Shown: positions 1-3,000 of the stretch, piece after piece | Layout: every line of letters starts with the position of its first letter | Position numbering within the stretch: position 1 is the first letter of the stretch | Position numbers: made by a program | NCBI RefSeq assembly: GCF_056746865.1 | Contig: NZ_CM163382.1 | Strand: one strand, 5' to 3' | Length of the DNA stretch: 64,000 nt

Positions 1-3000
1 GCTTTTTCTGCCTCAAGCAGGGGTAAGATATCATCTAAGGAATGCATTTCAGGCATCGATCCCATGACTGGTAGGGTGCTCATGAACCCCTCTTTCTGAA
101 GAGCCTTCACTTTTTCTAAATCATTTTTATAGAGATGTAGGCTGGATACAAAGTGATGATAGTGACCCAATTCGCATCCTATCAAGCGGGCAACTAATTC
201 CTGTAGCATCGTGAACGCAAATACATCATGAGGCAGCCCCATAAAGGCATCGTTAGAACGCATACAAACAAATAGATGCAGCTCTTCACATCTGACAATA
301 AACTGCATAGATATTGTACAAGGAATATCTACGTATTCTCGCTGTTCAGTTTTTGAGGGCACCAAGTCTGAGGCATCGAAAAGCTGTATTACTGCACGTC
401 TGGTAGGTTTTTTCTCCTGCAAAAGGTTGATAACATTTTTTAGCTGATTATATAAACCACGCATATTAAACAACCGTGGCCCGTAACCACCATGTATTTT
501 CCCATCTGACTCAGCGGATTCAGCGTAACGTGGTATGAAGTGTTTTATAAACTCAAGATCGTTCTGAGCTGAGAGATACCACAGAAATTCACCTAAGCAA
601 CTAATTAGTTTTCCTCGGGATTCTGTTCTACTTATTCTTCGGCGGGGGTCGGTAAGGACAAGATAGGCACCAAGAATCTCTAGAGTTGATCCTTTTGTAG
701 GATCGTTACTGAGTCCATCCGCTAGGATAGCTTGATGAACATCGTTTATCAGATCGTCAACACACTCAGCCGTTACCAAAAGAGTCATTTTCTACCTTTT
801 CCTGTATGGTAGTAACTAATCATTACCACCTGTATGGCATATAGTCAATATAGTATCAATATCAACATGGTTCACAGGGTAAGTAAGACTTGATCTTACC
901 CAGCAATAGTGGACACGCGGCTAAGTGAGTAAACTCTCAGTCAGAGGTGACTCACATGACAAAAACAGTATCAACCAGTAAAAACCCCGTAAACAGCATT
1001 CGCCTGAATTTCTCAGTGAAGCCCTGAAACTTGCTGAACGCATCGGTGTTGCTGCCGCAGCCCGTGAACTCAGCCTGTATGAATCACAGCTCTATGCGTG
1101 GCGCAGCAAACTGCAGCAACAAATGAGTTCGTCAGAGCGTGAAAGTGAACTGGCCGCTGAAAATGCCTGCCTGAAGCGGCAACTGGCGGAGCAGGCAGAG
1201 GAACTGGCTATCCTCCAAAAGGCCGCGACATACTTTGCGAATCGTCTGAAATGAAGTATGTCTTTATTGAAAAACATCAGGCTGAGTTCAGCATCAAAGC
1301 AATGTGCCGCGTGCTCCGGGTGGCCCGCAGCGGCTGGTATACGTGGTGTCAGCGGCGGACAAGGATAAGCACGCGTCAGCAGTTCCGCCAACACTGCGAC
1401 AGCGTTGTCCTCGCGGCTTTTACCCGGTCAAAACAGCGTTACGGTGCCCCACGCCTGACGGATGAACTGCGTGCTCAGGGTTACCCCTTTAACGTAAAAA
1501 CCGTGGCGGCAAGCCTGCGCCGTCAGGGACTGAGGGCAAAGGCCTCCCGGAAGTTCAGCCCGGTCAGCTACCGCGCACACGGCCTGCCTGTGTCAGAAAA
1601 TCTGTTGGAGCAGGATTTTTACGCCAGTGGCCCGAACCAGAAGTGGGCAGGAGACATCACGTACTTACGTACAGATGAAGGCTGGCTGTATCTGGCAGTG
1701 GTCATTGACCTGTGGTCACGTGCCGTTATTGGCTGGTCAATGTCGCCACGCATGACGGCGCAACTGGCCTGCGATGCCCTGCAGATGGCGCTGTGGCGGC
1801 GTAAGAGGCCCCGGAACGTTATCGTTCACACGGACCGTGGAGGCCAGTACTGTTCAGCAGATTATCAGGCGCAACTGAAGCGGCATAATCTGCGTGGAAG
1901 TATGAGCGCAAAAGGTTGCTGCTACGATAATGCCTGCGTGGAAAGCTTCTTTCATTCGCTGAAAGTGGAATGTATCCATGGAGAACACTTTATCAGCCGG
2001 GAAATAATGCGGGCAACGGTGTTTAATTATATCGAATGTGATTACAATCGGTGGCGGCGGCACAGTTGGTGTGGCGGCCTCAGTCCGGAACAATTTGAAA
2101 ACAAGAACCTCGCTTAGGCCTGTGTCCATATTACGTGGGTAGGATCACATAACCTGAAATGGCACTAATGGCCAGAGCTTACTAATACATAATCCCTACA
2201 GGATGTAGCCACCAGTTTTGTTCATCCGGTATTCTGATTTGGTAACATGCTCCAGAAAGGAAGAAATATGTACTGCAATGAATTAAAAGAATTTGCGCAA
2301 GAGCAGGAACAAAAACTTATCAGTGCGCTTGCTGATACCAGAGAGCACCCGTCCCCCGATGGTGAAACAAGAAGCCGGGATAATTATCAACGGGATTACG
2401 CGCGTATTCTGTATTCATCATCATTTCGCAGGCTGCAGGGAAAGATGCAACTTTTTGAAATTGATCCTGAAAAATTCAACAGAAACAGATTAACGCACAG
2501 TCTTGAGGTTGCTCAGATCGCCCGAAGTATCGCGTCAGACCTCAAACTGATTAACCCGGTGGTGGTTGAACTGGCAGCGCTGGCGCATGACATCGGAAAT
2601 CCTCCTTTCGGTCATTCCGGTGAAAAACTGCTTAATGAACTGTCTGAAGAAATCGGCGGCTATGAAGGTAATGCACAGGCGCTACGTATCCTGAGAAAAC
2701 TGGAGAAGAAATTTTCATACTGCAACGGATTAAATCTGACTCACCGTAGTTTACTTTCGGTTGTTAAGTATCCCATCCCCCGCGCTGCAGCTACTGCCGG
2801 CAAGTTCATTTATGATGATGATTACTATTTTTACATTAACCTGCTTGCTGAAAATCAGCTCGATCTGAATCCCGGAGAGAAAACGATTGATGCGCAGATA
2901 ATGGATCTCGCGGATGAGATTGCCTACGCCGCGCATGACCTGGAAGATGCCCTTAGCAGGAACATGGTCACGATTGAAGATATTGAATATGAGTTTCAGA

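Follow-up and report, generated by a model that had tools for sequence, protein, structure and literature searches.

A frameshifted IS3 isoform without target duplication at a probable rearrangement joint between a thymidylate-synthase-like and a dGTPase-family gene

The IS3 copy located at positions 891–2147 of the window, i.e., the complete stretch of 64,000 nucleotides that was analysed (contig NZ_CM163382.1), is an ordinary, inactivated insertion sequence of E. coli and the scar of a genome rearrangement, and it does not represent a new type of element. We consider it very likely that this IS3 isoform is fixed and non-autonomous and resides at a rearrangement joint. The initial annotation had already recognized an IS3 copy at 891–2148, though its end was set 1 bp too far: the last base of the element is 2147 (...GGATCA), giving a length of 1257 rather than 1258 bp.

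The element lies on the plus strand, as do all of its features described below. It is bounded by inverted repeats of 39 nt each (IRL, 891–929; IRR, 2109–2147), both of which are the same as in K-12 IS3, with a 5'-TG start and a CA-3' end, as is typical for the repeats of about 30–40 bp found in this family and group. The IRR is 72% complementary to the IRL, and the two arms together read TGATC...GATCA from the outer left to the outer right end. According to the ISfinder convention, an isoform of IS3 shares at least about 95% nucleotide identity with the reference. Over its full length (1257 bp), the window copy is 96.0–96.1% identical to canonical IS3, but this identity is distributed very unevenly. 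In an alignment to IS3C of K-12 (NC_000913.3, 566777–568034, 1258 bp), positions 891–1012 (minus one A) and 1246–2147 match exactly, so that, apart from the missing A, identity is 100% outside of 1013–1245 and about 79% inside. All 49 substitutions fall within this patch (about 21% divergence), and if the substitutions were scattered uniformly, clustering of this kind would have a probability below 1e-30 (upper bound). This mosaic structure was absent from the initial annotation and was found on the alignment to IS3C. The window copy is hence a 96%-identical mosaic isoform and more than a reference IS3 minus one base. The idea that the mosaic by itself demonstrates a single crossover was considered and dropped, because position 2103 does not fit and because plasmid isoforms pair a K-12-like 5' end with a patch-like segment. 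At an identity of at least 99%, the patch-type isoform is represented by about 325 records, which is about the number of genomes carrying the locus; as judged from these records, there is no evidence of spread.

A single lesion abolishes the reading frame of orfA. At 980–984 the copy contains a run of five A (A5) with an inactivating −1 deletion, while canonical IS3 comprises six (A6); the window reads AGTAAAAACCCCGT where K-12 IS3C has AGTAAAAAACCCCGT. The alignment thus bears out the earlier claim of a frameshifted orfA with one A fewer than IS3. Because this A is missing, OrfA ends after 23 codons (956–1027; ATG at 956, TGA at 1025–1027), with the translation MTKTVSTSKNPVNSIRLNFSVKP. The rest of the orfA frame (982–1254, 90 codons) still matches the helix-turn-helix domain HTH_Tnp_1 (PF01527, E = 6.8e-9); it is closed upstream by a TAA at 979–981 and offers no start codon before ATG 1123, which sits past the helix-turn-helix. 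If A6 is put back in silico, a full-length orfA frame results, and the missing A is the only lesion. The downstream orfB (1251–2117, 288 aa) is intact, is identical in DNA sequence to K-12 from 1246 on, and encodes a DDE/rve catalytic domain (PF00665, E = 5.1e-28) besides matching PF13276 and PF13333. Within the orfA/orfB overlap, the A-AAA-G motif of programmed −1 frameshifting is intact as well (AAAAG, 1217–1221); the role of this slip motif in IS3 is known (Sekine et al., 1994, as referred to in PMC11708052). An Rfam scan of 700–2400 for a frameshift pseudoknot gave no match to any model at E ≤ 1. Taken together, the overlapping orfA/orfB layout and both family domains, the DDE domain in OrfB and the helix-turn-helix in the orphaned orfA frame, are present, and the broken orfA makes the copy a pseudogene. 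PGAP labels the identical copy in other genomes accordingly ('IS3 family transposase; frameshifted').

With a stop after 23 codons, a full-length OrfAB with its N-terminal DNA-binding region should be unavailable. Judging from the known behavior of IS3-family transposases, the window copy is probably unable to transpose alone, because the OrfAB transposase would not form without the N-terminal OrfA helix-turn-helix. The suspicion that the copy may be transposition-defective is supported in as far as, by its sequence, the loss of a single A severs OrfA and, with it, OrfAB from the start codon. It could nevertheless be mobilized in trans.

The closest known relatives of the copy are other IS3 elements. 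It shares with the K-12 elements (IS3A–E; insE/insF) the inverted repeats, the 288 aa orfB, the A-AAG slip site and the orfA/orfB overlap, but differs in its length of 1257 instead of 1258 bp, in the truncated OrfA, in the 49 substitutions of the 1013–1245 patch and in the lack of a 3-bp duplication. The patch is common to the IS3 isoform of plasmid p537-20_1 (NZ_CP091535.1, WP_085962211.1), which is 99.3% identical, has the same orfB and differs within the patch only at 1168. An isoform of the p537-20_1 type is also found beside the dGTPase gene in ECC-1470, UC4224 and IMT16316. The 5' end of the plasmid isoform is altered (ATG to AAG, −1 at 961, A7C1 tract), and its orfA is open from an upstream GTG, because the three compensating indels amount to a net change of −3. 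PGAP assigns a protein accession to the plasmid copy and so regards it as intact, whereas the chromosomal copies of ECC-1470, UC4224 and IMT16316 are annotated as 'frameshifted'. In the window copy, unlike in that of p537-20_1, the 5' end is of the K-12 type with an A5 tract, and orfA is frameshifted.

One might argue that the A dropped out in sequencing or assembly, in which case the copy would be a functional IS3. Indeed, the tract is a homopolymer, its length differs across assemblies (A5C4, A6C4, A7C1, A7C2 and A8C2), and canonical IS3 copies elsewhere show sporadic A5 calls. However, 185 complete genomes contain the 3.6-kb region with A5 (query coverage of 80% or more), and the 30 of them that were listed are all 100% identical. 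The A5 form also occurs in SCEC020001, in two independent metagenome contigs and in the diverged allele of RX24, whose IS3 is likewise 1257 bp long and carries 12 SNPs compared to the window copy. Since this diverged allele shares the same A5, the lesion is old, and an assembly error is hardly credible. The exact A5 form of 925–1012 was found in 236 records, while about 4000 records have A6 as best match.

The second line of evidence is provided by the flanks. To the left, the TS-like gene (1–788, minus strand, cut by the window start; PF00303, E = 5.3e-25) begins 102 bp from the IRL and belongs to a TS-like/aGPT-pyrophosphorylase module. To the right, the dGTPase-family gene (2268–3500, plus strand; PADLOC dGTPase model, E = 2e-109; HD and HD_assoc domains) has its start codon 120 bp from the IRR and is part of an anti-phage-type dGTPase module. 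The element is preceded by GTAAGACT and followed by CATAACC; thus ACT (888–890) faces CAT (2148–2150), unlike at all three positions. While IS3-family elements duplicate 3 bp, rarely 4 bp, of their target, no such duplication exists here in any register, so that the differing triplets and the lack of a duplication noted in the initial annotation hold on realignment. An IS without target duplication is commonly explained by an adjacent deletion or by recombination of two IS copies (PMC11708052).

Both flanks were found in IS3-free contexts. On the TS side, SCU-152 and the metagenome contig L030 continue from AAGACT directly into TGACGTTCTT and further into hsdS-hsdM-hsdR of a type I restriction-modification system; SCU-152 matches the window through 890, including the final 14 bp of the native flank (GGGTAAGTAAGACT, 877–890), and then departs. 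This context consists of one genome and one 100%-identical metagenome contig and probably represents a single lineage. Scanning metagenomes with a 20-mer of the TS flank gave 21 hits, 13 of which were unrelated chance matches; the 8 informative ones comprise L028, L029, L030, L032, L033, L035 and L037 together with an odd, low-coverage junction of L035. On the dGTPase side, 45 J-8-type genomes (94.6–100% identity) read GCACTGGCAA immediately before CATAACC, which is preceded by unrelated upstream DNA; the native flank thus begins with CAT. The other 281 records of this flank match only starting from the IS3 end. In both IS3-free contexts homology breaks exactly at the IS3 termini, and each flank is collinear with a separate IS-free context. 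The mismatch of ACT and CAT exists because the flanks derive from different contexts and reflects the insertion history, not the element itself. That the copy marks a joint between the TS-like and the dGTPase-like gene, as initially proposed, is therefore supported by IS3-free relatives.

A single genome, EC2, appears to contradict this. It is the only one in which the TS and dGTPase genes abut without IS3, with an otherwise unchanged intergenic sequence, and could be read as the ancestral empty site of a simple insertion between long-standing neighbors, whose duplication was later eroded by point mutation. However, EC2 lacks the 14 bp that the IS3-free TS flanks of SCU-152 and L030 keep. Furthermore, its junction lies inside a repeat (GGTTCACA/GGATCACA) of which one copy takes in the final bases of IS3, and its flanks are 99.9–100% identical to those of the IS3-bearing RX24 (left flank, 1 mismatch over 4739 nt; right flank, 4 over 5901 nt), while RX24 and the window allele differ at 32 sites in 3.9 kb. 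In addition, the 45 diverse genomes mentioned above carry other sequence upstream of dGTPase right up to the junction, and erosion would have to account for ACT and CAT without any position in common. The 14-bp loss, the junction repeat and the near-identity to RX24 rule out EC2 as the ancestral empty site, and a simple insertion is very improbable. Because its TS flank is 14 bp short and it is nearly identical to RX24, EC2 is a later deletion. It probably lost IS3 by a microhomology deletion between the GGTTCACA/GGATCACA repeats, which match at 7 of 8 positions and contain 5 bp of perfect identity (TCACA). This resembles the nearly precise excision of Tn10, as IS3 and 14 bp were lost between short direct repeats. 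Excision of IS3-family elements enhanced by IEE is another case for comparison (bioRxiv 10.1101/2023.06.07.543989); the resident copy encodes no transposase.

How the joint itself arose can be envisioned as follows. IS3 may once have been present at both sites and have duplicated 3 bp at either one, ACT in the case of the TS site and CAT in that of the dGTPase site. The two copies would then have undergone RecA-type recombination to a single hybrid IS3 that kept one flank of either parent, and the DNA in between would have been deleted or separated; the result would be ACT, IS3 and CAT in this order. The presumed TS-site parent would read AAGACT, IS3, ACTTGACG, with the junctions GTAAGACT plus TGATCTTACC and GGATCA plus ACTTGACG, and the presumed dGTPase-site parent GGCAACAT, IS3, CATAACC, with the junction GGCAACAT plus TGATCTTACC. 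Queries taken from J-8 (left flank) and SCU-152 (right flank) detected neither parent with a matching duplication in 5426 complete E. coli genomes, and for this reason we infer the two-copy step rather than report it as observed.

The same search result fits a one-step scenario as well: a single IS3 upstream of dGTPase could have caused a transposase-driven adjacent deletion or intramolecular transposition, its left end hitting a target beside the TS-like gene, so that the IRL became fused to new DNA without a second IS3. This would yield the same outcome, with one flank kept, the other swapped and no duplication, and adjacent deletions, which are more common for IS3 with fused orfAB, have been documented as one way in which duplications go missing (PMC11708052). 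However, flank swaps at this locus accompany switches of the IS3 sequence type (FORC_028, SCEC020001, IMT16316 and L037), which homologous exchange between different copies predicts and a lone element does not. Moreover, the present copy makes no transposase of its own, though it might have been intact back then. We thus regard the one-step scenario as unlikely.

Sister genomes are in line with recombination between IS3 copies. FORC_028 and OkiPb01705 possess an intact K-12-type 5' half of IS3 and a new left flank in a MazG-like gene, the TS cluster being deleted. In SCEC020001 the window-type 5' half is joined to a 3' end of a third type, and the right flank is new, while in ECC-1470, UC4224 and IMT16316 the left flank consists of IS1/fec DNA. 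Since chimeric IS3 copies with replaced flanks occur in these genomes, homologous recombination between IS3 copies recurs here, and the window-type copy may since have served as portable homology for flank swaps. Duplication-less IS at joints in E. coli lines of the long-term evolution experiment share the mismatched flanks with separate ancestral contexts and the chimeric IS sequence seen in the sister genomes (PMC11708052). There is no difference in kind, the history being drawn here from natural isolates. The window copy and its joint are thus real, ordinary and already known in kind.

One might go further and regard the locus as an unusually active IS3 exchange site, where the pseudogene would be broken and repaired time and again through gene conversion with other copies of IS3, within a composite anti-phage island assembled by IS3. 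The tract states A5C4, A6C4 and A7C1 all occur at the same junctions and p537-type copies have regained an open orfA, yet we find this reading rather doubtful. If true, a thymidine-hypermodification-type module and type I restriction-modification would stand beside a defense dGTPase, and read-through from IS3 would influence dGTPase expression. Scanning 700–2400 for promoters and terminators was uninformative regarding an influence on neighboring genes, with 3 promoter-like sites versus 2.0 expected.

Other IS elements of the window show both patterns. IS2 (44695–46025; GAATA/GAATA), IS5 (59497–60691; TTAG/TTAG) and IS186 (46279–47617; GGGACTCCCC on both sides) have the clean duplications described initially. 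IS1 (43267–44034, 768 bp) is flanked by GAAGTGTCT and GTGTTCCCG without a 9-bp duplication and is itself a joint; the lack of a duplication had been reported correctly, but its end was set at 44033, 1 bp short. No complete genome fully covers 28–52 kb of the window, the best reaching 93%. H9Ecoli is collinear with the window only at 1–15.8 kb and 50.5–64 kb.

For annotation, 891–2147 should be labeled as a non-autonomous IS3 isoform and excluded from counts of active IS3. Our understanding of IS3 function remains unchanged. The missing duplication reliably marks a secondary joining of the TS-like/aGPT-pyrophosphorylase module and the defense-type dGTPase and should not be read as evidence that they function as a pair. 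Beyond that, the series formed by the window type, FORC_028, SCEC020001, ECC-1470 and EC2 offers a natural example of a dead IS that drives deletions and flank swaps by homology.

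The IS3 copy occupies positions 891-2147 and is flanked by a thymidylate-synthase-like (TS-like) gene on the left and a dGTPase-family gene on the right. With 1257 bp it is one base shorter than the reference, K-12 IS3C (1258 bp), and while the initial annotation recognised the element, its true end lies at 2147 and not at 2148. Both ends carry imperfect inverted repeats of 39 nt each (TGATCTTACC... and ...GGGTAGGATCA). Between them lie a short ORF on the 5' side, the orphaned frame of orfA and orfB, which is intact with 288 codons and still encodes the rve/DDE domain. Of 5426 complete E. 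coli genomes, 4685 hold IS3 matches to this interval, and canonical copies share 96.0-96.1% identity with it. This copy and K-12 IS3C do not differ in the AAAAG slip site (1217-1221), in either inverted repeat or anywhere in 1246-2147.

Base-by-base alignment with K-12 IS3C bore out the suspected frameshift: a single A is deleted in the run after AGT, leaving A5 (980-984) instead of A6. Reading from ATG 956 gives 23 codons before the stop TGA at 1025-1027. The remaining orfA frame (982-1254) is closed upstream by TAA 979-981, has its first start at ATG 1123 and still encodes the HTH_Tnp_1 domain. This single-base loss is the sole lesion of the copy, as the orfA frame would be open with A6 restored; PGAP labels identical copies in other genomes as frameshifted pseudogenes. 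As the product would lack the N-terminal helix-turn-helix of OrfA, functional OrfAB, the transposase in IS3-family elements (PMC11708052; bioRxiv 10.1101/2023.06.07.543989), presumably cannot be made.

An assembly artefact can be ruled out as the source of the missing A. The 3.6-kb region was found in 185 complete genomes (30 of 30 among the matches listed are 100% identical), and 236 records match 925-1012 best with the exact A5 version, against about 4000 that have the A6 version. Furthermore, the diverged allele of E. coli RX24 has A5 too, despite 12 other SNPs, as do two metagenome contigs. Given the states A7C1, A7C2 and A8C2 in other IS3 variants and isolated A5 copies at unrelated loci, the tract clearly seems to be slippage-prone. 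Two canonical IS3 copies, one at the ylbG/rhs locus of the ET565 chromosome and one on plasmid p503025_105, match the A5 version exactly over 925-1012 and are flagged as frameshifted by PGAP; the homopolymer is prone either to recurrent slippage or to assembly errors.

The copy is not reference IS3 minus one base, but a mosaic isoform, a feature absent from the initial annotation, which has to be corrected in this respect. All 49 substitutions relative to K-12 IS3 fall within 1013-1245, the 3' two-thirds of orfA. This patch is ~21% divergent, whereas the remaining ~1000 bp hold no substitution, and uniform mutation cannot produce such clustering (probability bound < 1e-30). Nearly the same patch is found in the IS3 isoform of plasmid p537-20_1 (99.3% overall identity). 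In contrast to the window copy, it has an open orfA, owing to three single-base deletions that compensate each other and a GTG start further upstream, and PGAP has assigned it a protein accession. ISEc16 and plasmids of enterotoxigenic E. coli (ETEC) hold remoter relatives of the patch. At ≥99% identity the patch-type isoform is present in ~325 records, roughly the number of genomes with this locus; thus record and locus counts give no sign of its spread to new chromosomal sites.

The junctions read GTAAGACT/TGATC... on the left and ...GGATCA/CATAACC on the right. As initially annotated, there is no target duplication: ACT and CAT differ at all three positions and no repeat exists in any other register. 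Both flanks were joined in silico and queried against all complete E. coli genomes. Either flank is present in 368 of them, and in only one, EC2, are they contiguous without IS3. Compared with IS3-free relatives, the flanks run into different DNA. In SCU-152 the TS flank including AGGTAAGTAAGACT continues into TGACGTTCTTATATG..., followed by hsdS-hsdM-hsdR; this continuation is unique among complete genomes and recurs, 100% identical, in a metagenome contig (L030). In J-8, ...GGTTCGCACTGGCAA and a ShlB-family gene precede the dGTPase flank. The dGTPase-side junction is uninterrupted in 45 genomes (94.6-100% identity), while in the other 281 records homology starts no earlier than the IS3 end. 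Homology to each IS3-free context ends within 1-3 bases of the IS3 termini, so that IS3 joins two segments not originally adjacent, in support of the proposed rearrangement joint. IS3-linked dGTPase alleles are marked as derived, since IS3-free alleles are diverse and IS3-linked ones uniform.

EC2 might be taken for the ancestral empty site. However, it reads ...ATGGTTCACATAACC... and lacks, besides IS3, the 14 bp GGGTAAGTAAGACT; its breakpoint falls within a direct repeat, of which GGTTCACA is the left copy and GGATCACA the copy that extends across the IS3 end. It is nearly identical to IS3-bearing RX24 (left, 1 mismatch in 4739 nt; right, 4 mismatches and 2 gaps in 5901 nt); RX24 in turn shows 32 differences from the window allele over 3.9 kb. 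The 14-bp loss, the repeat and the RX24-like flanks rule out an ancestral empty site and indicate that EC2 lost IS3 secondarily by microhomology deletion, resembling nearly precise excision (bioRxiv 10.1101/2023.06.07.543989).

The simplest route to the joint would be two IS3 insertions, one at ...AAGACT^TGACG... duplicating ACT and one at ...GGCAA CAT^AACC... duplicating CAT, followed by homologous recombination between them to leave one hybrid IS3. We only infer the recombination step, since neither parental junction was found in the complete E. coli genomes searched. Alternatively, a one-step, transposase-mediated adjacent deletion possibly produced the joint; both processes are recognised causes of a missing duplication (PMC11708052). 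Yet homologous exchange is favoured, because it demonstrably recurred at this same copy. FORC_028 and OkiPb01705 carry an intact IS3 of K-12 type to 1236, then T1242, T1245 and C2103, with the left flank inside the MazG-like gene and MazG'-XRE-aGPT-TS deleted. SCEC020001 combines the window-type 5' half, including A5, with a third sequence type from 1843 and another right flank (ompC side). In ECC-1470, UC4224 and IMT16316, p537-type copies have IS1/fec as left flank. Among metagenome contigs, L037 combines the TS junction with A6 and is of K-12 type up to 1051, and L029 has a window-type IS with yet another right flank. Since every examined copy with the TS junction and a K-12-type 5' end except L037 has A5, the frameshift travels with the left half of IS3, and it probably came about once that half was already at the locus. 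In L035, a contig of 1.8x coverage from a human gut metagenome, 11 bp (TAAGTAAGACT) are missing where the TS flank meets IS3, and IS3 mixes p537-type, K-12-type and RX24-type segments; the contig may represent a true variant or several IS3 copies merged in assembly.

IS3 separates two genes that are transcribed divergently; its distance to the start codon is 102 bp for the TS-like gene and 120 bp for the dGTPase gene. A consensus promoter scan around it was uninformative. The dGTPase-family gene (2268-3500) matches the PADLOC model for anti-phage dGTPases (E = 2e-109; for defence dGTPases see bioRxiv 10.1101/2021.04.26.441389). The TS-like gene (minus strand, 1-788) shares its orientation with an aGPT-Pplase3/ADDT protein gene (PF18746, E = 4.8e-90), and an XRE-M78 regulator (PADLOC PD-Lambda-2_B, 9e-30) and a MazG-like gene are nearby. 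The set continues leftwards from 1-788 (L001:5049-8788). Phage pathways of thymidine hypermodification typically comprise such genes (PMC8989533, PMC5889632); here a chromosomal island of E. coli holds them, next to a type I restriction-modification system. In 45 genomes the dGTPase gene adjoins the ShlB-family gene without IS3 and the TS module. The two are separable modules: J-8-type genomes have dGTPase but no TS, and SCU-152 has TS but no dGTPase.

IS1 (43267-44034, 768 bp) likewise lacks its 9-bp duplication, as initially stated, although its end had been placed one base short, at 44033. On the left it adjoins sequence from within an ISL3/ISEc38-like transposase gene, on the right sequence from within an IS256/IS1414-like one. 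This is a second IS-marked joint, common to 19 genomes. The clean duplications of IS2 (44695-46025, GAATA, 5 bp), IS186 (46279-47617, GGGACTCCCC, 10 bp) and IS5 (59497-60691, TTAG, 4 bp) were confirmed and mark simple insertions. IS1, IS2 and IS186 are crowded into 4.4 kb. At 22898-22919 and 32385-32406, separated by 9.5 kb and both on the minus strand, are two solitary IS2 ends; one of them is a left-end repeat, the other a right-end-like one. They do not pair as one element and may be truncated IS2 copies on either side of a segment. Based on its collinearity with annotated H9Ecoli, ~5364-14022 was assigned as a resistance block integrated into the chromosome (ISCR2 remnant, floR, tet(A)/tetR, aph(6)-Id, aph(3'')-Ib, sul2), inserted beside pap operon remnants (truncated papA, papB/papI-like genes). 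Window self-comparison revealed a tandem array at 48224-48798 (99-bp period, ~6 copies, 96-99% identity).

Taken together, a frameshifted IS3 without duplication is confirmed and its interpretation as a joint supported, with corrections concerning its end coordinate, its mosaic nature and the secondary loss in EC2. The copy represents a well-understood kind of genomic scar, real and ordinary, and of low general interest.
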